From positions 1-44,612 of the forward strand of contig JAKJEE010000002.1 of NCBI GenBank assembly GCA_022705625.1: DNA of 44,612 bases. Reading direction: 5' to 3'. Source of the DNA: Patescibacteria group bacterium. Lineage in GTDB: Bacteria; Patescibacteriota; Minisyncoccia; UBA6257; JAKLIH01. Positions 1-44,612 of the stretch are shown piece by piece. The notes beneath the pieces were generated by a model. It did not search any database and was not told the DNA's origin. It worked only from the letters and a program-made list of their open reading frames with translations. Each line of letters starts with the position of its first letter. The first letter of the stretch is position 1. Both the position numbers and the translations under genes were made by a program.

Positions 1-2456
1 GATTGATTCTTGCCAAACATTTCCCCTGGCCCACGTAATTTTAAATCGATTTCAGCCAATTTAAAACCATCATGGCAATCAACCATGGCCTCTAATCTTT
101 CTTTTGTAGTTTTACTATTTGACTCGGTAAAAAGAAAACAATATGATTGATAATTACCCCGGCCAACTCGACCACGGAATTGATGAAGTTGAGATAGTCC
201 AAAACTTTCCGTGCCCATGATCAACATGACGCTCGCATTAGGAACATCAATACCAACTTCAATAACGGAAGTTGCAACCAATAAATTAATTTCATTATTA
301 TAAAACTTTTTCATAATCAATTCTTTCTCTTTGGATTTCATTTTACCATGAAGCATTTCAATTTGAAATTCGGGAAAAACTTTTTTCATCTTTTCCACTT
401 CTTTCTTGACGGCTTTAACTTCATAATTTAAAAGCTGATCAAAAGAAAATAAATTTTTGGCTTTTTTAGTGCCGTCTTCATTGGTTTCTTCAGCAATTTC
501 AATCCGAGGGCAAATCACAAAAGCTTGGCGTCCATTTTTTATTTCTTGGCGAATAAATTCAAACATTGGTTTCTCTTTTGATTTGGTCACGATTTTGGTT
601 ATAATAGCTTTTCGATTTTTAGGCATTTCGTCTAAAATTGATAAATCCAAATCACCGTAAATTGACAGTGCTAATGTGCGTGGAATTGGCGTAGCAGTCA
701 TGGATAAAAAGTGCGGAAGCAATACGCTATCCAAACAATCCGAACAACCCGAACGATTCGAATATTCTGAGTTCAAAACTCTTTTGGGTTTTAGATATTT
801 TTGAGTAAAATTTACTAATAAGCCCAGCTCTAAATTTGTTGTTTTTAAATATCTCAAAATTTGATTATAGTCAATTTTCTCGATATATGGCTTTGACTTT
901 AACTCAACAATAATTTTATCTTCGATAATAAAATCAGCAAAATTTGATTTTATATCAGCAATTTCGATCGGGACTTCTCGCTGAAAGTTAATATTATTTT
1001 CTTTTAATTTTTGTGCCAATAAATCGCCATACTGCCTTTCGCGACAAAATCTACCAATTTCATCGTGAATTTCAAGGAATATTTTATTCAACTTAAAAGA
1101 TAAATCTTTTTCAATAATTTTATCATTTTGATGTTTTGTTGCTTTCTCTTCGGATAATTCGGATGGGTTCGGGTTGTTAGGGTGGCGAAGCAGTTCTTTG
1201 CGCTGTTTGATACCAAAACGATGTTGTTCATCAATAATAACCAAACCTAATTTTTCAAAATCAATATTTTTTTGGATTAAAGCATGGGTGCCAACTACCA
1301 ATCACTGAGTGCCCTCTTTGATACTCTTTAATAAATATTCTTTGGAAACTTTACCTTCGATAAAGCCATCTTTAATTTGAACCCCTTCGCCAGTCATTAA
1401 AGCAACTTTTATATTAAATGGTTCCAAATATTTTATAATACTTTGATAGTGTTGTTTGGCTAACACTTCGGTTGGTGCCATAAAAGCCACTTGTCAACCC
1501 TGTTTTATACATAATAAAGCCACAGATACTGCTACAATGGTTTTACCCGAGCCAACATCGCCTTCCAGTAAACGATTCATTGGCGATCCACTTTCTAAAT
1601 CTTTCATCACATCCCAAATGGCTTTCTTTTGAGAATTGGTTAAAATAAAAGGTAGAGTTGATAAAAATTGCTTTGTTAAATCAATGTCGGCTTTAATTTT
1701 TGGAGCTTTATTTTTTGACATCTTGTCTTTGATACGCATTAAATGAAGTTGAGTTAACAACATTTCTTCAAACACAAAACGATTGCGAGCTTGAGTGGCC
1801 TCGTCAATTGTTTCGGGAAAATGGATTTTGTGCAAAGCATCTTTTAAATTAAATAATTTATTTCTTCTTTTAGTTTCGGCCGGTAAATAATCAATAAATT
1901 CTGCGTCGAATGTATCTAATAATCTTTTAACATAATTGCGCAACATTTTAGAACTCACTCCACTGGTTTCTGGATATACGGGGATTAAGCGGCCAGTATG
2001 CTTTAAATTGTTAATATCAATATCTTCGTAATCTTCTTTGCCAGAAATAATTTCAAAAGCTGGACTTTGGAAAACAAAATGTTTGCCCTTGGTTTTGGGT
2101 TTGCCAGAAACAGTAACAATCGTGCCGTTTTTAATTTGATTAGCAATAAACGGCTGGTTAAACCAAACTAAATCAGCCGACCCAGTGTCATCAATAATTT
2201 TACCTTCGGTTAATAGTATTTTGCGTCGATAAGTTCGATAGCTTTTTAATTTTTCAACTTTACCAATAATGGTGGCTGGTTCATCAAGTTGCAAATCAAT
2301 AATTGGCTTAATATTAGTAAAATCTTGGTAACGAAAAGGAAAATGTCACAATAAATCTTTTATGACATTGATGTTTAAATTTTTTAGTTTGTCTTGATAA
2401 TATTTGCCAACCCCATAGAGGTTAGAAATATCATCGGTTAGTTTTATATCGGACAT
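1..2456 (-). CDS. recG: ATP-dependent DNA helicase RecG. The C-terminal end runs off the window. Read with TGA=Trp (in-frame TGA at 1302, 1494 and 2346).
   Basis: The frame is open from ATG 2454-2456 down to position 3, with no TAA/TAG (checked codon by codon for 3-1301). Motifs present: GDVGSGKT, VIIDEQHRFG, MTATPIPRTLA, QLHQFRGRVGRG. ORF-track pieces 1302..1490 and 1494..2294 share this frame. Confidence 0.9.
723..1187 (-). other. In-frame ~155-aa insertion in RecG between motif II (DEQH) and motif III (TATPIPR). It encodes a PD-(D/E)XK nuclease-like GxxExxY/PDDEXK_3-type domain and is bounded by imperfect ~35-bp inverted repeats.
   Basis: The translation IGRFCRERQYGDLLAQKLKENNINFQREVPIEI..ADFIIEDKIIVELKSKP..QILRYLKTTNLELGLLVNF..KRVL matches my recollection of the GxxExxY family, including the D...ELK catalytic-type motif. 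The normal RecG spacing here is about 20 aa. The inverted-repeat arms are 735-770 and 1146-1184 and share the core AACAACCCGAAC. Confidence 0.6.
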
Positions 2457-2514
2457 ATTAAATATTTATAGAAATATTTTAACAAATTTTTGAATTAATG
2501 TCATTATAAAAAGA

Positions 2515-2755
2515 AAAACGGCAACCTGTTTAAGGCAGATTGCCGGCCGAGGATAGCCAGTATTGGACATTGTTTTCGCGGATGGCGAAAGCTATTGAAA
2601 ATACATATTTCTATAATATTTTCTTTGAACGATACTGAACTATTTTAGTGATTTTTTCGTTCACCACTACTTATCACTTAGAATTCCTCTGTTACGTTGA
2701 CTCCACTGCTTGTGGTCGCAGCTTTATGCTTATAGCATAAGTATCTAATGTACAT
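2515..2755 (-). ncRNA. Putative ~240-nt hairpin-rich small RNA or leader between hisS and recG.
   Basis: A minus-strand promoter TTGATT-16-TATAAT lies at 2762-2789. Several internal hairpins are present (CTTATGC/GCATAAG, TTTCGC/GCGAAA, AGTGAT/ATCACT). An intrinsic terminator CGGCAA.CTG/CAG.TTGCCG plus a T-run lies at 2517-2550. No ORF is present. Confidence 0.3.
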
Positions 2756-2932
2756 ACTATTATTATATAATAATATTTAGAAAAATCAAGTTTTGGATAA
2801 AAAATGAGCGACTCCTTTATGAGAAGCCGCGCGCATATCAAAAAATAATAAATAAAGAACAAATTTTACTCCCCTTTTAGTATCATTGCCAATTGGCAAT
2901 GTATCCAAGAGGAGGCCTTCTTGGAATAGCTA

Positions 2933-3001
2933 TGATATAATTTAACATAGAAATAAAAAATGTCAAATGAAATAGCGGCCCATATCGCGAGCCGCTTTTT
3001 C
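2933..3001 (+). promoter_or_regulatory. Tiny plus-strand transcription unit: an extended -10 promoter (TGATATAAT) followed by a GC hairpin and T-run.
   Basis: TGATATAAT lies at 2933-2941. The hairpin AGCGGC..GCCGCT plus TTTTT lies at 2974-3001. Only a 19-codon ORF fits between them. Confidence 0.3.
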
Positions 3002-3294: not shown

Positions 3295-4575
3295 TTAAAA
3301 TTTTAAAGACGCCAATAAATCATCTTTTTTGACTTCGATTTGTTCTTTGGAAATTAAATTTTTTACTGTTAAAATTCCTTTAGTTTTTTCATCTGGACCA
3401 TAAATAATTAAATATTTACAGTTTTTTGATAAAGCATACTTGATTTGATCGCCCAATTTATCGGCCGACAAATAGATTTCGGAATTAATATTATTATCAG
3501 TCAAAAATTTTAACAATTCTAAGCAATCACCTTTCATGGTATCGTCAAACAAAGCAATGAGAACTGATTTCTTTTCATTTTGTATTTCTTGATCATCTAA
3601 AAGACCAAAAATTCTTTCAATGCCGATAGAACCTCCACAAGCTGGAGTTTTATTGCCATTAAAAATACTAGTTAAACTATCATATCTACCGCCACCAGCA
3701 ATAGTTGAACCTAAATCAGGACTATAGAATTCAAAAATAGTGCTAGTATAATAGTCGAAACCTCTAACTAAAGTTTTACAAAAATAGATATTGATATCCG
3801 ACAAGAAAGGTCTGGCTAAAGCCATAATAGTATTAATTTGATTAATGATAGTTAAAATTTCTGGTTTATCTTTACAATAATTTTCAAAGTCAGATTCATT
3901 GCTTAAAATCTTTAAAATATTTTTGGAAATAGTTTCATCAAAATCTTTTGATTTTAACTCTTCTAAAACACCGTCAAAACCAATCTTGTCTTGTTTATCA
4001 AGACAAGTCATAAAAGTTTTTAAATCTACTATACCAAAACTTTCTAAAAATTTCTTCAAAAAATCTCTGGAGCTAATTTTTAAAGAAAGATTTTTCAAAT
4101 TAAAACATTCCAGAGCTTGCGCTAAAGCTAAGAACGTTTCCACTTCAACTAAGTTTGAGCTAGAACCGATGGTATCAATATCACATTGATAAAATTCACG
4201 AAATCTACCCCGCCCGGCCCGTTCGGCACGTCAGACTTTATCAATACAATAACGTTTAAAAACTTTGGGCAAATCATTTTGATATTCAGTGTAAAAGCGT
4301 GATAAAGGAACGGTAAGGTCATAACGAAGACCAAGATCGCTACCTTCTTCGGATTTATCGCCTCGTTTTTGAATTTGAAAAATAAGCTTTTCGTTTTCTT
4401 CTTGACTGCTAAATTTGCCATTTAAAACCTCAATTCGTTCCAAAACGGGTGTGTCAATTGGATCATAATTAAACTTTTCAAAAATTTGTTTTATCTGATT
4501 TATAATTTGTTCTTTTTTTCTAAGCTCATTTGGCAAAGTATCTCGCATACCAGATGGCGGTTTTGAACTAATCAT
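3295..4575 (-). CDS. hisS: Histidine--tRNA ligase (426 aa), with one in-frame TGA=Trp at 4231-4233.
   Basis: ORF-track pieces 3295..4143 and 4231..4575 are in the same frame. Motif 2 reads [25 protein letters not shown]. The GGGRYD motif 3 region is present. Confidence 0.95.
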
Positions 4576-6310: not shown

Positions 6311-8983
6311 TTAAAGTTTTTCTTCGATCACCGCTTGAGCCGCTGCTAATTTAGCAACCGGCACACGATAGGGTGAGCAAGAAACATAGGTGAGACCGAG
6401 TTTATGACAAAATTTTACACTTTCGGGATCGCCACCGTGTTCACCACAAATACCAATCTTTAAATCTTTTTTTACTTTTCGGCCCAGCGTTACGCCCATG
6501 GCCACTAATTTACCAATACCCTTTTGATCAAGCGTTTGGAATGGATCATTATCTAAAATCTTTTTATTTAAATAAATTTTAATAAATTTACCGGCATCGT
6601 CTCGAGAAAAACCCATGCCCATTTGAGTTAAATCATTGGTACCAAATGAAAAGAAATCGGCTTCTTTGGCAATTTCGTCAGCTGTTAAAGCGGCGCGAGG
6701 CACTTCAATCATGGTGCCAATTTTATAATCAAGTTTGACTTTATATTCTTTTAATATTTCTTCAGCAATTCTAATCGTTAGATTTTTCTGATCAATTAAT
6801 TCTTTGACATTACCAACGAGTGGAATCATAATTTCGGGAATAACTTTAATTTTTTCTTTTTTATATAATTCGCAAGCGGCTGACATAATCGCTCGAACTT
6901 GCATTTCGGTAATTTCGGAATAAGTTATACCTAAACGACAACCACGATGACCAAGCATTGGATTTTGTTCATGAAGTTCTTGGGATTTTTTCATAATCTT
7001 TTCAACTGGAATATCAATCGTGGCGGCTAATTCTTTAGCGGCCTCGTTGGTTTTTGGCAAAAACTCATGAAGAGGTGGGTCTAATGTTCGGATAGTTACA
7101 GGAAAGCCCTTCATAGTTTTAAATAAACCATAAAAATCTTCTTTTTGGAATGGTAAAAGTTTATTTAAAGCTTTGCGACGTTCTTGTTCAGTATCAGCCA
7201 AAATCATTTCTTGCATATAAGGCAATCTTTGGGAATCAAAAAACATATGCTCAGTTCGACAAAGACCAATGCCTTCGGCACCAAATTGATTGGCAACTTT
7301 GGCATCTCGAGGAACATCAGCGTTCGCTCTAACTTTTAGTTTAGCAATATTATCGGCTCATTTCATAAAAGTTTTAAATTCACCTTCTATTTCCGGCATA
7401 ATGGTATCAGCTTTACCTAAGATTACATTGCCATTATTACCGTCAATGGTAATATAGTCGCCTTCTTTGATAATATATTTTCCTTCATCATTGTTAGCAG
7501 TAAAGCATTTTTTGATCATATCAATTTTAATGTCTTCGCAACCAACCACGGCACATTTACCCATACCCCGAGCTACAACAGCCGCATGCGACGTCATACC
7601 ACCTCGAGCAGTCAAAACCCCTTGAGCAACGTTCATACCATTAATATCATCGGGCGATGTTTCATCACGAACCAAAATCACTTTCTCGCCTGATTCTGAT
7701 CAAGCCACCGCTTCATCAGGATCAAATACGACTTTGCCAGTACCAGCCCCAGGCGAAGCAGGAAGTCCTTTGGCAATAATTTCTATTTTGGCTTTAGAAT
7801 CAACTACTGGATGAAGCAGTTGATTAATTTGATTAGGGTCAATACGCATTAAGGCCTCATTAACAGTAATAAGTTTTTCATTAACCATATCAACAGCAAT
7901 TTTTATACCGGATCGAATACTTCTTTTACCACTACGAGTTTGGAGCATATACAAAATATCATTTTCAATTGTAAATTCAAAATCTTGCATATCTTTATAG
8001 TGCTTTTCGAGATTAGTCGTGACTTCAACTAATTGCTTAAATACTTTTGGCATATCCTTTTTAAGATTAATGATTGGTTGGGGGGTTCTCACGCCAGCCA
8101 CGACATCTTCACCTTGAGCATTAATTAAATATTCTCCATAAAATTCTTTTTTGCCAGTAGAAGGGTTACGAGTAAAACCAACTCCCGTTGCACAATTATC
8201 ACCCATATTGCCAAAAACCATAGCTTGAACATTAACAGCCGTGCCTAAATTATCAGGAATTTTATTAATTTGGCGATAAGTGATGGCGCGAGGATTATTC
8301 CAACTTTTAAAAACCGCATCGCGAGCCATAGCTAATTGAGTTAAAACATCTTGAGGAAAATCTTTGCCAATTTTAGCTTTGACTAACTTTTTATATTTAT
8401 CGATTAAATCTTTTAAATCAATATAAGAAACTTCATAATCATATTTTATCTTTTTGGCATCTTTTAATTTATGCAAAAATTCTTCAAATTCCGATTTATC
8501 AATACCAAGCACAACATCAGAAAACATCATTATAAATCGGCGATAGGAATCATAGGCAAAACGCGGATTATTTGATTGACTCGATAAAGCTTCAACAGTA
8601 ATATCGTTTAATCCTAAATTTAAAATTGTATCCATCATCCCTGGCATTGAAAATTTTGAACCAGAGCGCACTGAAACTAAAAGCGGATTTTTATTATCAC
8701 CAAATTTTTTACCACTAGCTTTTTCCAATTTACTAATCGCTTGCTCAAATTGATTTTGAAAATCAATGGGTAATTTTTTGTTATGACGATAATAATAATT
8801 GCAAACTTGAGTAACGATTGTAAAACCGGGTGGAACCGGAACACCAATTTTGGTCATTTCAGCCAGTCCAGCCCCTTTACCACCTAACAATTCTTTCATC
8901 GAACCATTACCGTCGGCTTTGCCATTTTGAAAGCTGTAAATATATTTTTCAACCTTAGTCGTCTTCACCTTTTTTGTGGTCAT
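6311..8983 (-). CDS. ppdK: Pyruvate, phosphate dikinase (890 aa), with two in-frame TGA=Trp at 7358 and 7700.
   Basis: The three ORF-track pieces are in the same frame. Motifs present: [16 protein letters not shown] (phospho-His loop), [10 protein letters not shown] and [13 protein letters not shown]. Confidence 0.95.
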
Positions 8984-9889: not shown

Positions 9890-12187
9890 TTAATTTTTCA
9901 TAAAATCTCTTGAGCTGTCTAATTCGAGTGATAAGATTTGCGAGAACTTCTCTTTGCCGATAGTAACGCCATAAATTACATTAGCGCTTGACATAGTTAA
10001 TCAATTGTGGGTAATAACAATGTATTGAGTTTTATCACTTAAATCTTTTAATATATTTGAGAATTTGCGAGTATTTTCTTCGTCAAGAGCGGCATCCACT
10101 TCATCTAAAACTAAAAGTGGTGGTTGGCTTTGAGAAACAATCGCAAATAGTAAAGCAATGGAAACTAAACTTTTTTCTCCACCCGACAAGGCCTCAACTC
10201 CATCAAGTTTGGTCTTAGGTAGTTTGACCTTGATTTCAACTCCTAACTTATCGTCGGTTTCTTCTTCAGCAGTCAAGCTATCCTGCGCACTTTCTTTGTC
10301 TTCAGTTTTGGCAATTTTTTCTTTAATTTCAATAATTTCTAAATTGCCTTTACCACCACCAAAAATTATTTCGAGATATTTATTAAAATCGGCATTAATA
10401 TTTTTAATTGATGTTCGAAAAGTATTATTAATCTGGTTAGTCAATTCTTTGATAACAATTTTAAGATCACTAACCGCTTTTTCTAAATCAGTTTTCTGAT
10501 TTTCCAAAAATTCGATACGTTTTTGGGTGTCGTTATATTCGTCAACAATGTTTTGATCCACAAAGCCAAGCTCGTTTAAAATGGCACGAAGTTTTTCAAT
10601 CTTATCATAATAATTTTTGAGATCTTGGTCGCTCAAAATCAAGGAGGTCTCTTCATCTTTAATTAAAAAATTGAAATCTAAATTCATCGAGGATACTTGA
10701 TTTTTTAAATTTTCGATATTGATATTGTTTTTTTCAATTTCAACATTAAAGCTCTGTTTGTCCCTTTGTAAATTCATTAATTCTCGTTGCTTGTGTTCAA
10801 TTAGATTGAACATTTCACGTTGTTTTTTTGATTCATCCTCTATTCGATTTTCTAAGTCATTGGCTTCGATGTCTTTGCTACTAATTTGTTTATCAAATTC
10901 ATTGATTTGGTTTTTAAGATTCAAAATACGATTTTTGATTGTTTCAATATTAACGTTTAATTCTTCAATGTGGGCAGTGTTAACCATAACTTCCGGTTGG
11001 ATTTCTTCAGTTGGTTTAATGTCTAAAATTTCATCCAAAATATTCTCAATAGAAACGATATTACTTTTAATTTCGTGAATATCACTACTATTTAAAATAT
11101 TTTTTATAAGTTGTTTTAAATTGTTAAATTTTAACTCGAGATTTTCAAAACTAATAAATCGAGGTTTTTTTGCCACATTAGAAGCAGATTGTAAGGGTTG
11201 ATGATTAGTAGTTAAATGCTGGAGTGATAATGTTTTTTCTTCAATTTGTCCTTCTAATTTGGCCATTTCATAAACTAAGGTTTGCTTTTGAGTATTTAAG
11301 TCCTTAATAAAATTTTCAACTTCACGCTGTTGTTGGTTAAGATTACTAATTATATTTTTATCAGTGATATTACTCAAGCCAAGTTTAACTTTTTCATTTT
11401 CAATTTCGGATTCGATGGTTTTAATCTTATCGTCGTAATTTTTAAGTTCAAGCAAAGTTGATTCATTACTTTTTTGAAAAGTATGGAAGCGATAACCGTA
11501 ATATTTTTTGCATAAATTAACTAATTCGTCTTGATACTCTTGTTGTTTATCAAACCGCGAAACATAACGTTTAAGCGATCTAAAATGAGGAAGAATCTCA
11601 TTTACAAGTGAGGTCACTTTATCTAAATTAATAATCGTAGCATCTAATTTCTTTTGAGAAGATTCTTTTTTTATTTCCAATTGTCTTAATCCTAAGATTT
11701 CTTCAAACATAATCTTACGCTCAACTGGCGAAACTTTCAAAATATTTTCGATACTACCCTGGCTAATAATTGATAATCCTTTGGTGCCTAGCTGAAATGA
11801 TGCTAACAATTCAACTAAGTCTTTTTGGCGAGCATCTTTTTTATTTAAAAAATATTCGGTTTTACCATCACGATAAATTACTTTTTCAATTTCTAAAGTA
11901 TTGACCTCGATTATATCGGGTCGGTTAATTTCATCAAAAACTAATCTGACTTTAGCGCTTTGGCCAGCCGGACGAAATTCGTTGCCACTGAAAATTAAAT
12001 TGATATTGTTGTCAATTCTAAGATTTTTTGAACTTTGTTCGCCTAAAACTCAACGCAAGGCGTCAACTACATTGGATTTGCCTGAACCATTAGGGCCAAC
12101 AATAGCGCTAATTCCTTTAGGAAATTGTAAAATAGTTTTGTCGGCAAATGATTTAAACCCTTTGATTTCGATTTCGCGCAAAAACAT
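9890..12187 (-). CDS. smc: SMC-family chromosome segregation ATPase, unusually short (765 aa) with no recognisable hinge domain. In-frame TGA=Trp at 10001 and 12050.
   Basis: The N-terminus reads [26 protein letters not shown]. The C-terminus reads [35 protein letters not shown]. The frame was checked for TAA/TAG at both joins. Confidence 0.85.
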
Positions 12188-12197
12188 GTTAAGAATT

Positions 12198-12225
12198 CAA
12201 AAGTCAAAAGTCAAAAGTCAAAAAT
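12198..12225. repeat. Heptad microsatellite (AAAAGTC) x3-4, abutting the smc start codon.
   Basis: On the minus strand it reads TTGACTTTTGACTTTTGACTTTTG, 10 nt upstream of the ATG at 12187. Confidence 0.75.
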
Positions 12226-12363: not shown

Positions 12364-13122
12364 TTATTTTCATTTTTCTTCTTTGAGAGCATTCTCGGCC
12401 GCTTTTTCTTCGGCATCTTTTTTAGACCAACCTTCACCCATACCTATTTCTTGGTTGTGAATTGAAACCGAAACGGTATAAAAAACTTGATGAGCTGGCC
12501 CAACCGATTTAATAACTTTATAGTTTGGTGCTTTTTTGTAAAGTTCTTGCATTTTTTCTTGTAATAAACTTTTGTGATCTTTTTGATTACTTTTCTCGGC
12601 AACTTCGTTAATAAAATCTTTCAAAATATCAGTAATAACATTTTTGGCAACTTGAAATCCCTGATCTAAATAAATGGCGCCAAATAAGGCCTCGACTGCA
12701 TCCGCTAAAACATAACATTTTACTTTGGACTCATCGATAGTTTTTTCATTTAATTGAGACAAAAATTGTTCAACGCTCATTCTCTCTCCTTTGGATATAA
12801 AAATATATTTGTCTAAAGATAAAGATAATGCAATTTTTGACAGCATTAAGGAATTAACTAAATTGGCGCGTAGAGGCGTTAAAATACCTTCCGGCAAATC
12901 AGGATATTTGGAAAAAATAAAATCAGAACTTGAAAGTTGTAACACGGCATCGCCCAAAAATTCTAAACGCTCATTATGTTTATAAGGTCATTTTTTGTTT
13001 TCGTTTAAAAACGAACTGTGGGTAAGTGCTTCAAAAAAATATTCTTTTTTTCTGATTTTTATTTTGAAATGATTTTCAAAATATTGTAGAGCTTCGTCTT
13101 TACGATGTTCTCAATTGGTCAT
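12364..13122 (-). CDS. rnc: Ribonuclease III (about 252 aa). In-frame TGA=Trp codons are present. The old TGA stop at 12370 is read as W-K-stop.
   Basis: Motifs present: HNERLEFLGDAVL signature and a C-terminal dsRBD (GPAHQVFYTV..GEGWSKKDAEEKAAENAL). The frame was checked from 12901 to 13122. Confidence 0.9.
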
Positions 13123-14077: not shown

Positions 14078-14180
14078 ATTAATTCGATTTAACAGTGATA
14101 TTGTATCATAAAAAATGATGTTTTACAAGAGCTAACGCTACCCTAACAATCCTAACATCCCAAATTATCCCCGCTGCGCT

Positions 14181-14556
14181 CCCCCAAACTAACCAATAAT
14201 AAAGTCAAATGTCAAATGTCAAATGTCAAAAATGAAAATTCCAATATCCAATAAACAAGAATAAAGTCAAAAATCCCCCACACTAACCAATAATAAAGTC
14301 AAATGTCAAATGTCAAATGTCAAAAATGAAAATTCCAATATCCAATAAACAAGAATAAAGTCAAAAGTCCCCCACACTAACCAATAATAAAGTCAAATGT
14401 CAAATGTCAAATGTCAAAAATGAAAATTCCAATATCCAATAAACAAGAATAAAGTCAAAAGTCCCCCACACTAACCAATAATAAAGTCAAATGTCAAATG
14501 TCAAATTTCAAAAATGAAAATTCCAATATCCAATAAACAAGAATAAAGTCAAAAGT
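14181..14556. repeat. Tandem array of 4 x 94 bp. Each unit is CCCCCA(C/A)ACTAAC + (GTCAAAT) heptads + AATTCCAATATCCAATAAACAAG.
   Basis: The CCCCC landmarks at 14181, 14275, 14369, 14463 and 14557 give an exact 94-bp period. The units are nearly identical. Confidence 0.95.
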
Positions 14557-14655
14557 CCCCCACACTAACTTTACAATAGAACGGTAATATTAGTTAAGAG
14601 AAGCGAAAGATAGTAGATAAATTATGGCATGTATTTAGTAAAGTTAATGTGGGGG
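14557..14655. repeat. 99-nt hairpin/MITE-like element H1 with 18-19-bp terminal inverted repeats CCCCCACACTAACTTTAC..GTAAAGTTAATGTGGGGG.
   Basis: The architecture and length match the elements at 19728-19826 and 19893-19991. Confidence 0.8.
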
Positions 14656-27166: not shown

Positions 27167-30100
27167 TTATAATTTTTGATTTTTCTGCCGTCATTGTTCA
27201 ACAAGCTCTGCTACGGAATCTTGCGTTTCTGTTGTTTCTTTTCTTTCGTTACTTTGTTTGGGTTCATATTCTGGTAATGGTTCAACAATATAAGATCGAC
27301 AGTCTGATCCACCATTGTATTTTTTGGTATAGAAAAAATATTCAAAATTTTCTGAGCTAGGCGGAGGAATTCGACTATCTATTTCTAAAAAGAATTTAAC
27401 ACCATTTACTTCGGTATACCAAGCTTCTTTATCGGTAAACGGGTTAATACCTCGTTTAAATTTTCCTTTATATCAACTTTTATTTTCTAAAACATAAGTT
27501 TCTAACTCTTTTACTTTTTCATAATATTCGCTCGGGTTATCTTTATAGTATTGAATCATTTTTTGTTTGTGTTCTTCATAAAATTGATTCGGATTTCAAA
27601 TCATTTTGAAATCTTTCAATTTCAATTCAGAAAAAGGTGTTTCGTTATCTCAAAGCTTAGGTCCAGCATTTTTCAAATTATAATAATTATCAGAACGGGA
27701 ATTGTCAGAACGCACAACTTCTATCTCATATTTTCCCTTTAGCATAGCTTGAACAGTAGCCATAACACCGACTACTAATTCATCCCGTTCGTTCACAATG
27801 CCTGATATTAATATTGTTCTTTCGTCGCTATTAAATCTTTCTTTAGGATGATCTTCTCAACATTTTAATGAAGAGTTCAGGAGACCACCACAAACAGGAC
27901 AGCGCTGATAATATTGTTGTATGGCGACCGGGATCATTTCTATATTTTTAGCTACTTCTTTGTATCTTTTTATTGTTTCTTGCAGTCTATCAAAGTTCTC
28001 TTGAAAATTTGCTCAATCCTTCTCTTCTTTTGCCTCCTCACAATTCTGTATAAAATAGGATAATTTTTCTTGTTGTGAATAAGTTAGATATTTAGATCAT
28101 TCTATAAAACTTGGCGCCTCTGACTCCATCTCTTGTTTGAATTTTTCAATCTCTTCAATCATTTGAGAACTTTTTTGTTCTATTACTCTCTGTTTTTCTA
28201 TTATTTTAAAAGCTTCAATAGTATTTTCAGTAGTTCGATTTGCCTCTTCTTCATCTAAGAAATGGCGAGAAAAAATGGTGATGTCGTTAAAATTGCTATT
28301 ATTATAGTTATTAACCGACCTTTTCTCTCCCCAAATTGTAACTAGCTGTGCGTCCAATCCTGGATAGGACACAAATGGTTGTTGGTTCAAAGGATTGGTT
28401 CCATATTCAGTAGGTGGATACAAATAATGTTTAATATCTGTTTCTAAGGAAAAATCAGTAATAACTTTTTTCTCTAATATACCATCTTTTTCGGCTTGTA
28501 AAAAACAACTGGTTTTAATTTGTGCAACTATATTTTCTTTGGTTGCATCTAAATTTGTTTTTTGAGGATCGTATTCTGCTCCGTTAATCAAAATCATTAA
28601 TTTTTCCTGTGATGGTGTTTGCGGTCATGTTGTTAAATTGATAAAATCTTCTTTTTTCATCTCTATGGTGCACTTTCTGTTATACTCAGCGCCATTATAA
28701 AATTTATAAGATATTTGGTATTCAATTCCATTAATTACGATCTTGCTTGGGTTTTCTTCATTAATACGATCTTGATCTTCTTTCGATATCAAATCTTCTA
28801 ATTTAATTTTAAAATTGATTGTTCCTTCTTCTATGGCTTTTAAAAACTTTTGACGAGAATTAATTTCCCCTAATAAAAATATATAATAGGCGTCGTGTTG
28901 ATATTTATACGTTCACGGTTTATAGCCACTTTTATCTTTATCTTTAATATAAAACTCATATAATTTATTAAAAACCTCTTCGTTTGATTCGAAGGGAATG
29001 TATTTTTCAATAAAGCTTCTGTCTCCTGCAAAATAAATATTGGCAGTTTTTTTAGATTCTGGGACGTTGTCATAATCTCGTTCTATGACCTTTACATCAC
29101 TGTCTAGTAAACGATGCGTTTTTTCTTCGAATATTTTATCTTGTTCGGGGTCGTATAGGTAGGAAGATCTTTCCAACTCATATAGGTCTGGGGCTAACTT
29201 GAATATTCATTCTGGCTTAACTGTTTGACAATCTAAAGCAAAGGGCTTACTGGTTTCAACGACTTTATTGCAAACAAATAGGTCGGGATTTTTAGAAAAT
29301 AGAACAGAAGATGGGTGAATATATGCTGAAGATGAATCATGCCCATCATATTTACTTTTATGTTGATAAGTATGAAAACCTGACGATAAAAAGAGTTTAT
29401 CAAGAAGACCAGCAGTAATACAAAGACCAATCTTATCTGGATCTTCGTTTTTCTCAGCTTTAATATTGTTCTTTCTTAAGATTCTTAAAAGCTGGAGCCT
29501 TATTTCTTTAATTTCGTTTAAAACTTTGGGATTTAAAAAATTATCAACAGCCCATCGATAACTATAATTACTTTTTTCATAAGCTTTTCAAACATTCAAA
29601 AAAGTAATAAAATCTGAATCATTGTCTTCAAATTGTTCATGGACTTCATCAGCTTGTCGGGCTTTTTCTTTAGGTCTAACAAAAACATTTTTACCGCTCA
29701 GAAAAGCAGTAATAGTTACTATGGTTTCAGCATTGTTATATCTTTCTGATTCTACCAAAATTCTGCCAAGATGGGGTTCTAAAGGTAATTCATTCATAAT
29801 TTCACCATCTTGAGTAATATTTCCTTCTCGATCTAATGCTCCGATTTCTTTAAGAATGGTAATGGCTTCTTGAATGTTCTTAACTCCCGGTTGATCAATA
29901 AAATCAAAAGTGTCTGGAGATATTTTTAAGCTTTTCATAGTTAAAATAACATTGGAAAGATTAGCTCTGAGAATCTCTGGTGTCGAAAACTTATCAGCTT
30001 GATCAAAAGCAGCTTCGGTACATAGTCGATAACAAAAACCTGGCTGAACACGACCGGCCCTACCGGCTCTTTGCGTCAAACCCGATTGAGAATGCATATT

Positions 30101-31174
30101 TGTTTCTAAAGATTGAATACCTTTGTCAGGATCATATTTGATTTGCTTAATCAAGCAAGAATCAATAACATAAATAATACCGGGAATAGTAAGAGAGGTT
30201 TCAGCAATATTAGTAGAAACGATAATCTTTCTTTTGCCATTCTTGGTAAATATTTTATTTTGAGATTCGGGATCCATCTGCCCATAAAGAGGAAGAATTT
30301 CTATATTATCTTTGTTAGAAACTTCTAGATTAATTGCTTCAATGGTTTTTGATATCTCTTGCTCGCCGGGCATGAAAATTAAAATATCTCCAGCTTGGCT
30401 TGTTGTCAAAATCTCTTTTACTTTATCAGCGGCCAATGATGGAATTTGGTTAGGCACAGGGTTGTATGTTTCATAACTTATTTTTACAGGATATAATCGG
30501 CCTGGTATTTCTAGAGCGGGGGCAGAATCAAAATATTGAGCGAATTTTTCTTTTTCAATGGTGGCGGAACTAATGATTATTTTGAGTGGAGGCAATCCTT
30601 GCTCCTTTCTTTTGATCTGAGTTGCTTTAAGAAGCCCTAAAGAAAAATCAATGTTTTGACTTCTTTCGTGCGCTTCATCAACCATTACAGCCGAATAGCC
30701 TTCTAACAAAGGGTTAGATTGAATAATTCTTAAAAATATGCCATCAGTAATAAAATTTAGGCGAGTACCTTCAGTAGTATGATTGTCAAATCTTATTTGA
30801 TAACCGATTTCTTGACCGATTGGAACGTCTCTTTTAGAAGCTACGTATTTGCCAATCGAACTAGCCGCTAAAGGACGGGGTTGAGTAACCAGAATTTTAC
30901 CTTCTAAAATATCTAATAAATAGCCAGGTATTTCCGTAGTTTTGCCCGAACCAGTCGCTCCTATAATAAGACAAGATTCGTTATTTAAAATAGTTTCTTT
31001 GATTCTTGTTTCAAATCTTTGTATTGGTAATTCATTAAAGAATTTTTTTTCAGCTTGTTGATATTCATCGGTTTGCTTAGCTTTCATCAAAATTTCTTTT
31101 CTCGCGTTTTTAGGTTTTGTTAATATCTCTTTTACTAAATCAGATCTAAATTTTTTAAAATTAAGATTATTCAT
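27167..31174 (-). CDS. HrpA-like DEAH-box ATP-dependent helicase, 1335 aa, with a long unassigned C-terminal region. It has at least 11 in-frame TGA=Trp.
   Basis: The whole frame was checked for TAA/TAG in 27167-28097, 28598-28912 and 29177-29587. Motifs present: GATGSGKTT, VMVDEAHERS, SATIE, TNIAETSLTIPGI and QRAGRAGR. The HA2/OB-like segment W-KAYEKS..RWAVDNFL..IRLQL is also present. The ORF-track pieces 29588, 28913 and 28097 share a frame. Confidence 0.88.
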
Positions 31175-32753: not shown

Positions 32754-34706
32754 TTAGTCTTTTAAAGTTTTAATTCATTCAAACACATCGGCATCACTTG
32801 GCATACGCCAATCACCACGAGGTGATAAGCTGACACTTCCAACCTTAGGTCCATCTGGCACGCAGTTTCTCTTAAATTGCTGAGAAAAAAATCTTTCATA
32901 AAACTTCCTGAGCCATTTCCTAATTATCTCTTGATTATATTTGCGATTGAAGGCAATATTAGCCAAAAACAAGATCTTATCCGGATGGCTACCATGTCTT
33001 AAGGTATGAAATAAAAAGAAATCATTTAATTCATATGGACCAATATCGTTTTCGGTAATCTGGGATATTTCTTCTTTGGGATTGACCGGCAAAAGCTCTG
33101 GGCTAATGGGAGTAGACAAGATACCTTCCAAAGCCGTCTTTGCTTCATTGGCTGAATTATTAGCAACTCATTTAACTAAAAAACTAACTAATGTTTTTGG
33201 AATACTACAATTAACATTATACATCGACATATGGTCCCCGTTAAAAGTGCATCAGCCTAAAGCTATCTCAGATAAATCGCCAGTACCTATAACTAAGCCA
33301 TTATGTTTATTAGCATAATTCATCAAATTTTGAGTCCTGGCTCTAGCCTGAACATTTTGATACGCAATGTCATGAATATTTTCATCTTGACCAATATCTT
33401 TAAATTGTTGTAGACAACTTGGCTTTATATCAATTTCTTTAATAGTACATCCTAGAGCTTTCATTAAGCTTACAGCATTGTCATATGTTTTATTGGTAGT
33501 ACCAAAACCAGGCATAGTGATAGCGATAATATTTTCTTTTGGAAGATTTAATAATTCTAATGTTTTATGGCAAACAAGTAAAGCTAAGGTTGAATCAAGC
33601 CCGCCGGAAACACCTATAATAACATTCTTTATGCCGGTATACTCTAATCTTTTTGCTAAGCCAGCTACCTGAATATTAAAAATCTCTGCACATCTTTTAT
33701 TAATAGTCTCTGGGTTTATTGGTATAAAAGGGCAAGGGTTGATTGTTCTGTCTAAAACTATCTTTTTATTGTTCAGTTTGTTAATTTCTTTAAAATCAAA
33801 ACTGACTGTTTGCACTTTAAATTGGCTAATACTATCATCATAAAGATCAGCAAAACTTTTGTTCACTAATCTGTCATTCTTTAAATTTAAAAGATCAATA
33901 TCAGCATAAATTATATTGTTTTCTCTTTGAAATCTTTTTGATCTGTTAAGTAAACTTCCATTTTCAGCAATAAGACAATCACCTCCAAAAACAACATCAC
34001 TGGTCGATTCAAATACCCCTGAAGAAGAATAAATATAAGCAGCAATAGCTCTAGCACTTTGTTGTAATACCAATTGCTCTCTATAATCACTTTTAGCAAT
34101 GAGTTCATTACTAGCAGATAAATTAAACAAAATCTCGGCTCCATTTATGGCTAAATAGGAGCTAGGCGGTATGGGCATTCATAAATCTTCGCAAATCTCT
34201 AAGGCAAATTTAAAATCTAAGTCCTTAACTTCGAAAACTAATTTACCAAAAGGAATTTCTTTGTTTAAGAATCTTACTTTATTTATTTGGTTAGAGATTT
34301 CGTTGCCTGAAGTGAACCATCTTTGTTCATAAAATTCTTTATAGTTAGGAAGAAACATTTTCGGAACAATCCCCAATATATCCCCTTTAAAAATTACAAC
34401 TCCGCAGTTGTATAATTTATCTCCTATAGTGATGGGCATACCTATATTTATAATTATAGGTAAGTTTTTTGTTTTTTCCAATAATGTGTTTAAGGCATCG
34501 TGGCTTGAAACAATTAAATTGTTTTGTAAAAATAAATCAGCGCAGGTATACCCTGTAAGACTAAGCTCTGGAAAACTAATCAGAATAGTGTTTTTAGCTT
34601 CTGCTTCCCTTACTATTTTTTCGATCTCTAATATATTATAGGAAGGATTAGCTATTTTAATTTTTGGAGTAGCTGAAGCTACTTTAATAAATCCATGATT
34701 ATACAT
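32754..34706 (-). CDS. nadE: Glutamine-dependent NAD+ synthetase NadE, long form (about 650 aa), with in-frame TGA=Trp at 34179, 33252, 33168 and 32775.
   Basis: It has an N-terminal CN-hydrolase domain (..EICEDL), GVSGGLDS (the ATP-PPase SGGxDS motif) and [18 protein letters not shown]. Read-through of the TGA at 32775 ends at a TAA 2 nt before the nadD ATG. Confidence 0.9.
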
Positions 34707-37419: not shown

Positions 37420-37889
37420 AAAAACTCCATTGCTTTAACCGCTAACCAGCAGATGAAAGAAAAGGAGTTTTCTTTGACTTTTATATGTTAAATATAAAAT
37501 TATCTGCCCGCTAATGCGGCTAAATTTAGCACCTTTCTATATAGTAATAGAAGGTTGCTGGATAACTATAACGAGTTAGTTCTCATAACTACATAAATAT
37601 AGTTTAGTTATCTCTCAGGATAATTATTAAATTGTTATTAAAGAACGAACAAATTGTATAAAAAGAAAAACCTCTTTCGTTTATTTCGCAAGACGTACGG
37701 AATAAAAGAAAAAGGGTTTGAGTATTCTTTTATCCGTCCGCAATTTGCGGCTGAGATTAGCACCTTATTATGTAAATAGGTTGCTGGATAGCTGTGACGG
37801 GTCAGTTCCCGTAACTATATATAAATATAGTTTTGCTATCGCTCTAGATAATATCTTTCTTTTGCTTAAGAACAATTTGATTTTGTTGT
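37420..37889 (-). ncRNA. Putative ~470-nt noncoding transcript carrying two tandem paralogous ~127-nt structured modules (37728-37853 and 37498-37625).
   Basis: A consensus promoter lies immediately upstream. The modules are about 70% identical and share the same helices. Compensatory changes are seen (GATAAC/GTTATC vs GATAGC/GCTATC, and ACGAG/CTCAT vs ACGGG/CCCGT). There is no ORF. A distal hairpin AAAACTCC..GGAGTTTTTTT lies at about 37421-37471. Confidence 0.5.
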
Positions 37890-37981: not shown

Positions 37982-39556
37982 TTAAACATTTTTATCTCTT
38001 AAATATTTATAGTTTTTTAAAACAAAGGCTATAGCTTCTTCTTTGGTCTTAATTGTGCCTTCCTGTTGTTTTTTAAAAACACTATTCAAAATAGTTTTAA
38101 AAAATGGACTTGATTTAAAACCAAGATTAATTAAATCGTTGCCTTGAATTAATTTTTCTAAATGTCCAGAAAAAACATCTAACTCAACTGCCATTTTGGT
38201 TAATTCTTTTATTTTTTCAAGATTTACAATATTTTGATCATTTAGTTGGCCACGTCCAGAATAGTCAGCTTCCATAACTAAAACTAATTCTTTAATAGTA
38301 GCTGGTTTAATAGCATTAGAAAGTTTTTTTACAAATTTTTCAGAAATTTTATCAACACCGATAAGAGCATCATGATATTTAACGAGTTGCAAAATGATTG
38401 GAATATTTTTTTTCGGAATATTTAATTTCTCTAAAAAAGTGATAGCAAGTGGAATTGACGCTTGGGTATGACCATAAGAAGTTATTTTTTCACCTTCGAT
38501 TTTAGTAGTGGTGGCCTTGCCAAAATCATGGCATAAAACACTTAATAAAATTATGATTTGGTGTTCTTTAGAAATTTTTTCTCGCTGGCAAATATTTTTG
38601 GCTTGGTCTAACGCTTGCAATGTATGCTCGAAAACATCACCTTCGGGATGATATTTTTTTCATTGGGCTAATCCGATTAAATTATATATTTCTGGATGAA
38701 GCTTTTCTAATATTTTTAACTCTTTAGCGACTCTTAACCCATAACTTGGTTGATCAGCTTGCAATAACATTTTAATTCATTCTTCGCCAATGCGAGAATT
38801 ACTAATATTTGATAAATCTATATTTTGACAAAGATTTTTGGTTTTTTCATCAACTCTAAATTTTAAAACCGCTGCAAATCTCATAGCTCTTAATACTCTT
38901 AGGGGATCATCGGCAAATTTCCGTGCATCAACACATCTTAAGGTTTTATTTAAAATATCGTTTACACCTCCTTGTGCATCAAGTATCTCTCCAGAAAATG
39001 GGTCAATAGCGATGGCATTACAGGTAAAATCACGACGTGATGAAGCTTCTTCAATTGATAAATTAGGAAAAAAAGAAGTAGCAAAATCTTTGTGCCCTAC
39101 ACCTTTTTTTGATTCTTTGCGCGGCAAAGCAATATCAATACCTGGTTCAAGTTTATAGACTCCAAAACTTTTGCCAACTAAACCTAAAGAATCGTCAGTA
39201 TTTTTAGTTAAAACTTCTTCAACTTGTTGAGGAGTAATATTAAATATTTCCAGATCAATATCTTTGAAAGAAATCTCTTTTTTAAGTCCGAACTTGTATA
39301 ATATCAAATCTCTAACAAAGCCACCAATTAAAACTGGCTGAGCTTTATGTTTTTTAAGCAATAAACAAATTTCAATGACTTTTTTAACAACCTCTCTTTC
39401 GGATGGATTTTTAATATTAGAAAAAATTTTAACTAAACTTTCCACTTTTTTTGAGACGTTTGGCAAATTTTTATTTTTTGCTTGTTTTTTTTCTTTTGCA
39501 TTAATCTTGTTGTTATTGACATCTTTTTGGTGGATTTGATTTTTTGGTTTTAGCAT
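37982..39556 (-). CDS. cca: CCA-adding enzyme / tRNA nucleotidyltransferase with an HD domain (524 aa). In-frame TGA at 38777 and 38660. It has a Lys/Asn-rich N-terminal extension.
   Basis: Motifs present: VLIGGFVRD, ..RRDFTCNA.. and W-KKYHPEGDVFEHT (HD). The join 38621-38779 was checked codon by codon. The ORF-track start at 39640 overlaps tRNA-Ala, so I use the ATG at 39554-39556. Confidence 0.88.
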
Positions 39557-39631
39557 ATTTATTTTTGAAAAACTATTATAATGCTTTAACTTATTTTTTA
39601 TATATCGCTGTCCCGATTTTATAAGACGGTG

Positions 39632-39702
39632 TGGAGACACGGAGAATTGAACTCCGAATTGGTCATTGCGAACGACCTGTTATACCGTTTAACTATGTCC
39701 CC
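39632..39702 (-). tRNA. tRNA-Ala (anticodon CGC) with the G3:U70 identity pair.
   Basis: Acceptor GGGGACA/TGTCTCC with G3-T70, anticodon loop TTCGCAA, T arm CGGAG-TTCAATT-CTCCG, discriminator A. Confidence 0.88.
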
Positions 39703-40477: not shown

Positions 40478-40983
40478 ATGTCGCAAAATATTCAGAAACA
40501 AAAGTGCGTGACACTTTAAAGTATGTCGCAAAATAATGCGTGACAAGTGAAAATGTCACGCGCGTGACACTTTGACAGCGTTTTTTGACTTTTAAAATAT
40601 AAATAATAGCTTATTGAATTGTCACGCGCGTGACAATTCAATAAAAATCTCAATTTCCAACAACCAACACCCAAATAATAAATAAAAGATTGGATCAACC
40701 AATAGTAATTAGTAAATATAAAAATAATCAAAATGTCACGCGCGTGACAATTCGATAAAAATCTCAATATTAAATAATCAACATCCGAAGAATAAATATA
40801 AGGTTAAATTAGCAAATAACAGTAAATAAATATAATAAAAATAATCAAAATGTCACGCGCGTGACACTTTGACAGCGTTTTTTGACTTTTTAAATACAAA
40901 TAATAGATTATTGAATTGTCACACGCGTGACAATTAAAATGCCATGTCGCAAAATATTCAGAAACAAAAGTGCGTGACACTTT
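40478..40983. repeat. Iteron/operator-like array: five 16-bp palindromes TGTCACGCGCGTGACA plus half-sites, nested in ~88-bp direct repeats and bounded by 40-bp direct repeats.
   Basis: The palindromes lie at 40554-40569, 40620-40635, 40734-40749, 40851-40866 and 40917-40932 (the last with 1 mismatch). The direct repeats ATGTCGCAAAATATTCAGAAACAAAAGTGCGTGACACTT lie at 40478 and 40944. Confidence 0.9.
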
Positions 40984-42352: not shown

Positions 42353-42381
42353 TTGACAAATATAATAAATAGGTGTATAAT
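42353..42381 (+). promoter_or_regulatory. Promoter TTGACA-17-TATAAT for the CAP-domain gene.
   Basis: The hexamers lie at 42353-42358 and 42376-42381. Confidence 0.6.
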
Positions 42382-42406
42382 ATTAGTAGATAATAAACTA
42401 ATAACT

Positions 42407-43483
42407 ATGCTAAAAATATTTAAAAAATATTTTACATTTAACTCAGCTAATAATTACCAGCCAATTCAAACCAAACAATTTATGGTTGGCATTTTTCTAT
42501 TAATTATGATTTTTAACACCAGCTGACAATGGCTTAATTGCTATTTACTAAAACAAAATAATCTAACTGCCAACCTTAACACTCTGAATATAATTACTGA
42601 AATAAATAAAATCCGCGGTGCTTATGGCCTAGCACCATTAATTGAAAATCCCAAACTTGATATTGCGGCATTACTCAAAGCTCAAGATATGATAAATAAC
42701 GATTATTTTAATCATTATAGTCCGACTGGCAAAACACCTTGAGATTGAATCAATAGCGCACAATATAATTATAAATATGCTGGAGAAAATTTAGCTCTTA
42801 ATTTTTTCGATGATCAAACAACCGTTCAGGCCTGGCTTAACTCGCCGACCCACAAAGCCAACATATTAAATCCAAATTATCAGGATACTGGCGTAGCGAT
42901 TTTAAGTGGCGTTACTCCCACAACCAAAGAATCACGAACAGTTGTAGTTCAAATGTTTGGTGCCGAAAAAACCACTTCAACACCAGTGTTAAAGGTTAGT
43001 GCCACTGAACCAATCAAACCAACTACCACCACTATTAAATCAACCACTACCACCTTGGTCACCACTACCACCTTACTAGCCACGACAACGACAAAAGAAA
43101 ATACGATGATGATAAACTCCACAATTAGTAATGATGATAAAAAGACAATTAACCAAGAAGACACCGCATTGGCTTTTAAAAATTTAGCCCCCGTTTTGAA
43201 TAAACAAGCAAATCGGACCAACGAAACCTTGGCACTGAATACACGATTGATTAATGAAGCGGTCAATCCAAAAATTACTAAGGCAATTAATAATAGTTTT
43301 GGTTTGGGTCTTTTATTTTTAGGAATTTTTGGTATAATTAATATAAACACTCAAGAAAATATTTCAAATCAGTTTAAGAAAAAATTGCTGATTCGAAATG
43401 CCATAGTATTAGTTATCAGTTTAGGATTTATTGTAAATAATTTAACTTCTATAGTTTATAAAGTCAAAATACCAACTATATAA
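42407..43483 (+). CDS. CAP/SCP (YkwD-like) domain protein with an N-terminal TM helix, a Thr-rich linker and C-terminal TM segments (358 aa). It has four in-frame TGA codons.
   Basis: The frame was checked from 42407 to 42955. The sequence IN..R...GL.PL..N..L..AA..KAQDM....YF.H.SP.G...W...AGENLA......W..SP.H..NIL fits the CAP pattern. Confidence 0.8.
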
Positions 43484-43495
43484 TAATTAAAAATT

Positions 43496-44251
43496 ATGAA
43501 TAACATTTGAATATTTTTAAAGCGCTCCTTTATTATTTTTTCAGTATGTTTCACAATACTGTTTATATTGTTTTCAATTAACGCTATTTACTCGATTGCA
43601 AAATATAAAATTAGTCATCTTAAACAAAATGTTTTATATAGTTTAAAACGGCCAATTACTTTTAATTTACAACCCGAAACGATAGGCAATAATAACAATT
43701 TCGGTATGATAGTAAATGATGTTTTAACCAATACCCAAAATGCCTTAGGTGTTAATCGACCAATTATTTTTAGAGAGCCATTGCCAGAATTACCAACGGA
43801 AGCATTGACCCAAGATTTGTTGGTATTGCCAAAATTTGATATTAAAGCCCCAATTTGAACGGTGACATCGGAAAACAAAAAAGAAATATATGCCAATTTA
43901 AAAAAAGGAGTGGTTATTTATCCGACCACCAGTTTACCTGGCGGGGAATATTCGATAATACTTGGCCATAGCTCAAGATACCCTTGAGAGCCGGGAAAAT
44001 ACAAAGCTGTATTTTCGCTGTTAAATGAATTAACTATTGGTGATCGTATTTATGTCTTCTGACGACAAAAAGCATTGGTATACGAAGTAGTAGATAAAAA
44101 AATCTTTCTACCTTATCCTAAAGGTGAAGAATATACGGAAAATATTTTTCCACCTAATAGCCAAGAAAAAACTTTAATTTTGCAAAGTTGTTGACCAGTC
44201 GGCGTTGATTATAAGCGAATTGCGGTTAAAACAAAATTAATCAATTGATAA
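43496..44251 (+). CDS. Sortase-family transpeptidase (251 aa), with several in-frame TGA. It ends W-stop (TGA TAA).
   Basis: The frame was checked. It has an N-terminal TM helix, the ILGHSS catalytic His region and TLILQSC-W-P (the TLxTC Cys motif). An Arg is present in ..YKRIAV. Confidence 0.85.
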
Positions 44252-44261
44252 AAATATTAAT

Positions 44262-44612
44262 ATGATGGATGAACATTGTATTTTTTGTAAAATTATTAAG
44301 GGAATTATTCCCTCAAAAAAATATTTTGAAAATGATAGTTTTTTAGCTTTTTTTGATATTAATCCAATTTCAAAAAACCATATCGTATTTATTTCAAAAA
44401 ACCATTATGAAAATTTAAATGAAATGCCCGATAGTGAATGACAGCAGTTTATAGTCGAAGGGAGAGTAATAGCTGAAAAATTAGTGAAAGAAATAAATGC
44501 TGATGGTTATAACTTGATGATCAACCAAGGAAGAGCCGCTGATTCAGTTGTTAATCATCGACCGCATATGCATATTATACCTAGATATTTTAATGACAAT
44601 TTAAAAATTGAC
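44262..44612 (+). CDS. HIT-family (histidine triad) protein. The C-terminal end runs off the window.
   Basis: The sequence CIFCKII.G.IPS..... and the histidine triad HRPHMHIIPR are present. One in-frame TGA gives SE-W-QQF. Confidence 0.85.

Follow-up and report, generated by a model that had tools for sequence, protein, structure and literature searches.

How does an organism read the codon UGA when its housekeeping genes are interrupted by TGA, but never by TAA or TAG? This question is raised by a 44,612-base stretch of DNA from a Patescibacteria group bacterium (contig JAKJEE010000002.1 of assembly GCA_022705625.1), which was analysed as a whole and is called the window below. The window is one complete contig (C9) of a 571,283-base, 37-contig assembly that is rated 85.3% complete and 0.56% contaminated and has a G+C content of about 31%. 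We conclude, with a probability of roughly 96%, that the window belongs to an organism of the family JAKLIH01 (GTDB, class Minisyncoccia) within the Patescibacteria, or candidate phyla radiation (CPR), and that this organism reads UGA as tryptophan (NCBI table 4).

Table 11 breaks the housekeeping genes of the window, and the use of TGA as a sense codon restores them: valS, for example, becomes 749 amino acids long, as against fragments of at most 102. We delimited 26 genes, covering 72% of the window and 10,663 codons. They contain 86 in-frame TGA and 27 TGG codons and no TAA or TAG, as an earlier reading made from the letters alone (the sequence-only reading) had asserted for most of its joined frames; in the two other frames of these genes TAA and TAG are common, at 626 and 764 codons. 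The 24 genes that end within the window terminate in TAA (22) or TAG (2). Across the genome, table 11 leaves 47% of the sequence covered by stop-to-stop open reading frames (ORFs) of at least 150 amino acids, and treating TGA as a sense codon raises this to 81%; by the same measure, the values for the standard-code relative G063 are 85% and 87%.

To assign an amino acid to UGA, we compared all ORFs of the window's genome, with TGA masked, with those of G063, whose complete sequence was used (539,501 bases, 2 contigs, 32% G+C, 44 tRNAs). After removal of overlapping shadow ORFs, 303 non-overlapping ORFs were kept of the 378 that had a match. We found that TGA faces tryptophan at 323 of 619 aligned sites (52%), followed by F (47), L (37), Y (30) and G (10). 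TGG behaves in the same way: W at 99 of 186 aligned sites (53%), and G at 3. Within the window alone, 57 TGA sites are aligned, 35 of them to W and 1 to G. The few other codons that we checked have G (GGN, at 3722 of 5306 aligned sites), C (TGY) and R (both CGA and AGA) as their commonest partners, so that these codons keep their standard meanings. As judged from these alignments, the data support tryptophan as the meaning of UGA, and neither glycine nor termination, which is what the sequence-only reading had proposed.

Valyl-tRNA synthetase (ValRS) gave the same answer. In a printed alignment with the Thermus thermophilus enzyme (1gax), read by eye, the 17 aligned TGA sites face 12 W, 2 L, 1 F, 2 Y and no G. 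We also counted residues column by column in 19 standard-code relatives of the same order, a motif filter having removed 7 of 26 loci (L099, L100, L110, L114, L115, L116 and L118). Across the 17 TGA columns, 240 of these relatives' 323 cells are W and not one is G. Conversely, 12 columns are W in 80% or more of the relatives, and there the window's genome has TGA at 10, TGG at 1 and a tyrosine at 1.

The genes in which these codons lie, and their main companions in the window, are the following.

3-2456, minus strand: recG, running off the window; 3 in-frame TGA; Pfam RecG_wedge, DEAD and Helicase_C.
3295-4575, minus strand: hisS (histidyl-tRNA synthetase, HisRS); 1 in-frame TGA, at 4231-4233.
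6311-8983, minus strand: ppdK (pyruvate phosphate dikinase); 2 in-frame TGA, including 7358-7360; PDB 9pzl, 1105 bits.
9890-12214, minus strand: smc (SMC_N family, 774 amino acids); 3 in-frame TGA, including 12050-12052; Pfam SMC_N, E=5e-54.
12364-13122, minus strand: rnc (RNase III); 3 in-frame TGA; Pfam match.
15225-15959, minus strand: PrsW-family intramembrane protease; 5 in-frame TGA; Pfam PF13367, E=2.7e-22.
16057-18213, minus strand: valS (valyl-tRNA synthetase); 17 in-frame TGA; a longer ORF, to 18306, has 19.
20236-21309, plus strand: tsaD; 1 in-frame TGA; Pfam TsaD, E=1.7e-80.
22445-23218, minus strand: DUF3298/PdaC-domain envelope protein; 1 in-frame TGA.
24435-26837, minus strand: 800-amino-acid protein of Cys-rich repeats, with hydrophobic segments at both termini; 11 in-frame TGA, no TGG.
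27167-31174, minus strand: 1335-amino-acid DEAH/HrpA-like helicase; 11 in-frame TGA; Pfam Helicase_C, HA2 and OB_NTP_bind.
32754-34706, minus strand: nadE (glutamine-dependent NAD synthetase); 4 in-frame TGA, including 33252-33254 and 33168-33170; PDB 3dla, E=1.9e-137.
37982-39640, minus strand: cca-type nucleotidyltransferase with HD domain; 2 in-frame TGA; Pfam CCA/poly(A) polymerase head and HD.
42353-43483, plus strand: CAP-domain protein; 3 in-frame TGA; Pfam match.
43496-44251, plus strand: sortase; 6 in-frame TGA, no TGG; Pfam Sortase, E=3.5e-14.

The gene names of the sequence-only reading agree with Pfam, which supports RecG, HisRS, PPDK, SMC, RNase III, NusB, Hsp20, PrsW, TsaD and Tmk, and further DUF3298/PdaC, a DEAH helicase, NadD, NadE, a CCA-type enzyme with HD, CofD/YvcK, CAP, sortase and HIT. 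The same reading had singled out six TGA codons, in smc, ppdK, valS, nadE (two) and hisS, as lying on invariant tryptophans. All six are indeed in-frame TGA codons on the minus strand, and five of them correspond to W in the homologues compared. The smc site is W in G063; the valS site, at 17974-17976, is W in G063 and in 18 of the 19 relatives, with a gap in the remaining one. For ppdK and nadE we used PDB homologues (the best ppdK match in G063 is 23% identical, and nadE gave no alignment): the ppdK site is W in 9pzl, and both nadE sites are W in 3dla. Among the other TGA codons of these two genes, the one in ppdK faces A; of the two in nadE, one faces F and one lies outside the aligned part. 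The claim failed for the hisS site, which is W in 6nhi, F in 3net and G063, and Y in the human enzyme 4g84: judging by these homologues, it is an aromatic position rather than an invariant tryptophan.

Could UGA nevertheless keep a second role, as tryptophan inside genes and as a context-dependent stop at some gene ends? Our ORFs are defined by TAA and TAG, so that UGA terminators would be read through by construction. Before filtering, a TGA lay beyond the aligned part in 30 of 252 ORFs, and in 11 of these it was no more than 3 codons from where the relative ends. However, most of the cases that we inspected by eye were short shadow ORFs of odd composition. It was mostly such ORFs, superimposed on real genes, that produced an apparent excess of TGA exactly where the relative stops, and the analysis was repeated on the 303 non-overlapping ORFs. 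Among the 204 orthologues whose alignment reaches the G063 C-terminus, 174 then end within 5 amino acids of the G063 end, at TAA or TAG, and only 6 have a TGA in the C-terminal tail. The 36 orthologues whose G063 counterpart stops at TGA all end here in TAA (30) or TAG (6), 31 of them within 5 amino acids, and a tail TGA occurs in one. Together with the failure to find a release factor able to recognise UGA, these results make a dual meaning very improbable.

Release factor 1 (RF1) is marked by a PxT motif and release factor 2 (RF2) by an SPF motif. We found a single release factor with a PCRF domain in the window's genome, and it carries the motif PIT...GRIHTST. Two factors, one PFT-type and one SPF-type, are present in the relative G063, and the window's genome matches only with its own RF1. 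Thus RF2, whose loss the sequence-only reading had named as a test of the reassignment, was not found in this 85%-complete assembly, where the one PCRF gene is of the PxT type. Other genomes of the family behave similarly. When we ran a prfB model on 81 genomes of the order, the four family genomes among them, the window's included, scored 242-262 bits, the level of an RF1 cross-match, versus 278-447 bits for most other genomes. Five family genomes searched further (two already in the order sample) each gave one full-length factor and a short match of 22-28 bits, so that no RF2-level prfB score was obtained in any of the 7 different family genomes searched. Five named relatives have one PCRF gene each, which itself contains in-frame TGA. 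Outside the family, two standard-code genomes, G085 (L169; 98% complete) and G012 (L168; 93%), also show one PxT-type (RF1) PCRF factor and no RF2 that we could find, and their ValRS genes contain no in-frame TGA. G065 (L170; 85% complete) has a single PCRF match whose RF type is not settled by motif search, and G021 has an SPF-type factor with a stretch of N in its interior.

A tRNA with anticodon UCA, another test named by the sequence-only reading, gave a divided result. The window's genome contains 42 tRNA genes, one partial tRNA gene and a tmRNA gene, with many CNN anticodons, but no tRNA with anticodon UCA or CCA was found in its 85%-complete assembly. Trp-type tRNA(UCA) genes do occur in the same genus and family. 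A degenerate pattern for a UCA anticodon loop found none in 26 relatives, its matches being about as numerous as those of a reversed control; the search was then made with the Rfam tRNA model, first on one same-genus genome, and tRNA(UCA) was found in 7 of 11 other family genomes (L153-L159). For all seven, the closest of the 44 G063 tRNAs is tRNA-Trp(CCA), at 71-83% identity, and they share the Trp-like features A1-U72 and G73, with a 3' end in ...CCCCTG. A further tRNA, tRNA-Ile with anticodon UAU, is shared by the window's genome (C28:2520-2596), G002 of the same genus and the standard-code G063.

The position of these genes suggests why none was seen in the window's genome. In G002 (98% complete), tRNA(UCA) lies just after the series Thr(UGU)-Tyr-Thr(GGU)-rpmG, with rpmG standing between Thr(GGU) and tRNA(UCA), and tRNA-Trp(CCA) lies elsewhere. 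Among six family loci examined, tRNA(UCA) follows Thr(UGU)-Tyr-Thr(GGU) in four, and a fifth shows Tyr-Thr(GGU). In G063, G036 and G087, which represent the nearest standard-code family (f21), the Thr-Tyr-Thr cluster is followed by tRNA-Trp(CCA). Contig C36 of the window's genome carries Thr-Tyr-Thr-rpmG, an extra ORF after rpmG and then, over its last ~300 bases, a tandem repeat of ~56 bp. Because the contig breaks off in this repeat before the slot is reached, the slot for tRNA(UCA) is unassembled here.

These tRNAs also bear on the reading of UGA as glycine (table 25), as in Gracilibacteria and Absconditabacteria. That reading deserves attention because the organism belongs to the CPR, in which table 25 is the long-known recoding, and because tables 4 and 25 open identical frames. 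Nevertheless, glycine faces TGA no more often than it faces TGG (10/619 versus 3/186), and where 80% or more of the relatives have G, at 21 ValRS columns, the window's genome has GGN at 19 and TGA at none. Moreover, tRNA-Trp is the nearest G063 counterpart of the tRNA(UCA) genes of the family, whose three best-matching G063 tRNAs include none for Gly. We therefore regard glycine as even less probable than a dual role.

Reading UGA as tryptophan would be unremarkable in a contig from a Mollicute (Mycoplasmatales or Entomoplasmatales), for which table 4 is expected and of which low G+C and a small genome are also typical. However, our results place the window elsewhere. Of the nine public ValRS loci closest to the window's (67-82% identity), seven carry the title Saccharibacteria, one Patescibacteria group and one Paceibacterota; no Mollicute is among them, and the next matches are Campylobacter-type, at 40%. 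The genomes of the family and of its neighbours in the order are small (0.4-1.4 Mb), and the neighbours outside the family read TGA as stop. The rich set of 42 tRNA genes with its many CNN anticodons, and the sortase, PrsW, DUF3298/PdaC and CAP envelope proteins, which Pfam confirms, likewise argue against a Mollicute origin, to which we assign a negligible probability. The sequence-only reading, which had invoked the same envelope proteins, was thus right to set the Mollicutes aside: the nearest relatives are metagenome-assembled genomes of Patescibacteria. Equally negligible is the idea that UGA is an ordinary stop and that the genes split under table 11 are pseudogenes or assembly errors, given 86 in-frame TGA with no TAA or TAG in 10,663 codons whose other frames hold hundreds, the location of TGA on conserved Trp columns and the same pattern in independent assemblies of the family.

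Several results tie the window to JAKLIH01 and confine the recoding to that family. G001, which is labelled as congeneric with the window's genome and as a member of its family, matches record JAKLIH010000006.1 at 100% over 2106 nucleotides, and we infer that the family name derives from the prefix of this record. The window's ValRS is 80% identical to that of the JAKLIH01 record (79% at the DNA level), as against 58% or less for other families of the order. Since its nearest relatives in protein searches are at most 82% identical, the window represents a separate species-level genome. In our sample of the window's order (81 genomes, 32 families), we found in-frame TGA in the ValRS gene of all 4 family genomes (17, 15, 15 and 15 codons), and none in the 76 remaining genomes that gave a match, which represent 31 further families. 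Among the 32 families sampled, the recoding is thus confined to the window's family and is therefore independent of the Mollicute and Gracilibacteria cases.

Six points weigh against our conclusion that this is a JAKLIH01 organism reading UGA as tryptophan. First, no gene for tRNA(UCA) or tRNA(CCA) was found in the organism's own assembly, so that the tRNA evidence comes from other genomes of the family. Second, because the genome is 85% complete, RF2 is 'not found' rather than proven absent. Third, W is the partner of about half of the TGA sites; as TGG behaves alike, we attribute the other partners to divergence (~45% identity) and not to another meaning. Fourth, the use of TGA and TGG varies among the window's genes beyond chance (permutation P ~0.01; P = 0.0015 after the addition of one ORF picked post hoc by its counts). 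Fifth, the link to the family rests on kinship labels and the record prefix. Finally, the case for tryptophan is built from sequence.

The sequence-only reading had suggested that this might be a new and independent reassignment. Independent it is, at least of the Mollicute and Gracilibacteria cases, but it is not new, because two papers of 2026 report it for the family JAKLIH01. According to the available text of the first (NAR, April 2026; PMC13092985), the family JAKLIH01, of order UBA6257 and class Minisyncoccia, is 'a new independent case' of UGA-to-Trp. The second, on gTranslate (PeerJ, October 2026; PMC13695967), describes UGA-to-Trp in 12 JAKLIH01 genomes and 10 of genus GCA-2747955 and, in the part available, calls these the first such cases in the phylum. 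A third paper (PMC13462651), as far as its available text goes, still counts three earlier phyla plus Actinomycetota. Our literature search found no publication on Saccharibacteria with translation table 4. The interpretation of the sequence-only reading is therefore correct in substance, for a case that is already known, and the window confirms the published reassignment for one more genome.

Our results for the window's genome and its family agree with JAKLIH01, so far as the available text of the two papers (PMC13092985, PMC13695967) describes it, in code, lineage and Trp at the UGA columns; in both accounts some of the genomes have tRNA(UCA), RF2 is not found and UGA does not serve as a stop. 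Genus GCA-2747955, also in Minisyncoccia, shares phylum, class and reassignment, and is a separate lineage according to the text of PMC13695967 that was available. Beyond the phylum, the table 4 lineages (Mycoplasmatales/Entomoplasmatales and the insect endosymbionts Hodgkinia, Zinderia, Nasuia and Stammera) are alike in UGA=Trp, RF2 loss, low G+C and small genomes, and likewise have a tRNA-Trp(UCA) derived from tRNA-Trp, but they belong to unrelated phyla. The Gracilibacteria and Absconditabacteria (table 25) are alike as CPR members with a sense UGA and no RF2; they read it as Gly, whereas the window's family reads it as Trp and has a Trp-type tRNA(UCA). Base composition and genome reduction alone do not separate the recoded members of the order, since G063 is similar in both (32%, 540 kb).

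Reassignment of a stop codon is rare in free-standing bacterial lineages, and through this case the Patescibacteria become the first known phylum in which tables 4, 11 and 25 are all in use. There are practical consequences as well: table 11 mis-annotates the genomes of the family, with half of the coding sequence lost, and the NCBI titles of the family members considered here conflict (Saccharibacteria, Paceibacterota, Patescibacteria group). With the same G+C, a similar size and a syntenic tRNA-Trp slot, the window's genome and G063 form a close pair for studying the change.

How might the change have come about? Because the slot after Thr-Tyr-Thr holds tRNA-Trp(CCA) in the standard-code genomes, the simplest reading is that C34 of an ancestral tRNA-Trp gene changed to U in place, which would have given tRNA(UCA). 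A second, more divergent tRNA-Trp(CCA) gene would then supply the UGG-specific reader, and loss of RF2 would have left UGA free of termination. The tRNA-Trp genes of the window's own genome would lie in its unassembled 15%. This second tRNA-Trp(CCA) gene is present in 9 of 12 genomes of the family (L172-L184). Its backbone (L078 in G002) is the more divergent one and was not found in the relative G063; in G009 (L179, L184) it occurs in both CCA and UCA forms.

The tRNA(UCA) genes share an unusual feature of the anticodon stem: positions 27 and 43 are unpaired in all seven (A·A in 3, G·A in 2, A·C in 1, U·U in 1), leaving a stem of 4 bp. Among nine tRNA-Trp(CCA) genes of the family, the same positions are A-U in 2, G·U in 6 and U·U in 1 (8 of 9 counted as paired), and among eight from standard-code relatives (L194-L211) there are 7 pairs and one G·A. 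Overall, 27:43 is unpaired in 2 of 17 tRNA-Trp(CCA) versus 7 of 7 tRNA(UCA), although the genomes are related and these counts are not independent events. In G009, the CCA form of the second backbone has G·U and the UCA form U·U. Four types of mismatch on two paralogous backbones argue for more than one origin of the unpaired state.

Stems of 4 bp are found in 8.9% of bacterial tRNA-Trp(CCA) genes and promote UGA reading by CCA tRNAs, according to the available part of the NAR paper (PMC13092985). We found no mention of the stem state of tRNA(UCA), or of the syntenic origin of its gene, in the portions of PMC13092985 and PMC13695967 that were available, and a literature search on the 27:43 anticodon stem with UGA and tryptophan found no publication. 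We tentatively raise the possibility, though we hold it to be rather unlikely, that the unpaired 27:43 has been selected, so that the 4-bp-stem effect also covers a fully cognate suppressor tRNA-Trp(UCA) in a reassignment by in-place conversion of tRNA-Trp. If so, the effect could widen or strengthen the decoding of UGA and UGG, and would reach beyond near-cognate CCA tRNAs that read UGA, for which it has been described so far.

Other features of the window deserve brief mention. The 800-amino-acid protein (24435-26837), for which no match was found in Pfam, consists of Cys-rich modules of ~35 residues each, has a perfect 108-bp duplication at the repeat 25833-26039, and uses TGA for all 11 of its Trp codons. 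In RecG, a PD-(D/E)XK_3 nuclease-like domain (residues 451-555, E=6e-23; window 792-1106, minus strand) is inserted between the DEAD/ResIII match (residues 272-425) and the Helicase_C match (residues 685-767). A SAM riboswitch (S box) match lies downstream of cca at 37727-37854 on the minus strand, scoring 45.4 bits against an Rfam threshold of 44.4, and no clear gene was seen in the ~700 bases beyond it. Intergenic tandem repeats occur at 14180-14569 (94 bp x 4.1), 19238-19450 (115 bp x 1.9) and 40620-40866 (114 bp x 2.1); repeats such as these and the one at the end of C36 probably fragment the assembly.

The valS ORF runs 31 codons upstream of the start of homology (18214-18306), with 2 more TGA, and this extension overlaps the end of an upstream 277-amino-acid ORF (18174-19007, minus strand) that has no firm Pfam match. 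Translation of valS probably starts at the Met pair 18211-18216, the point from which homology with ValRS 1gax extends. As for individual genes, TGA:TGG use is uneven: it is 17:1 in valS, 11:0 in the 800-amino-acid protein and 6:0 in the sortase, in contrast to tmk (0:2), a 171-amino-acid ORF (0:2), a 155-amino-acid ORF (1:3) and a DUF218-like gene (1:3).

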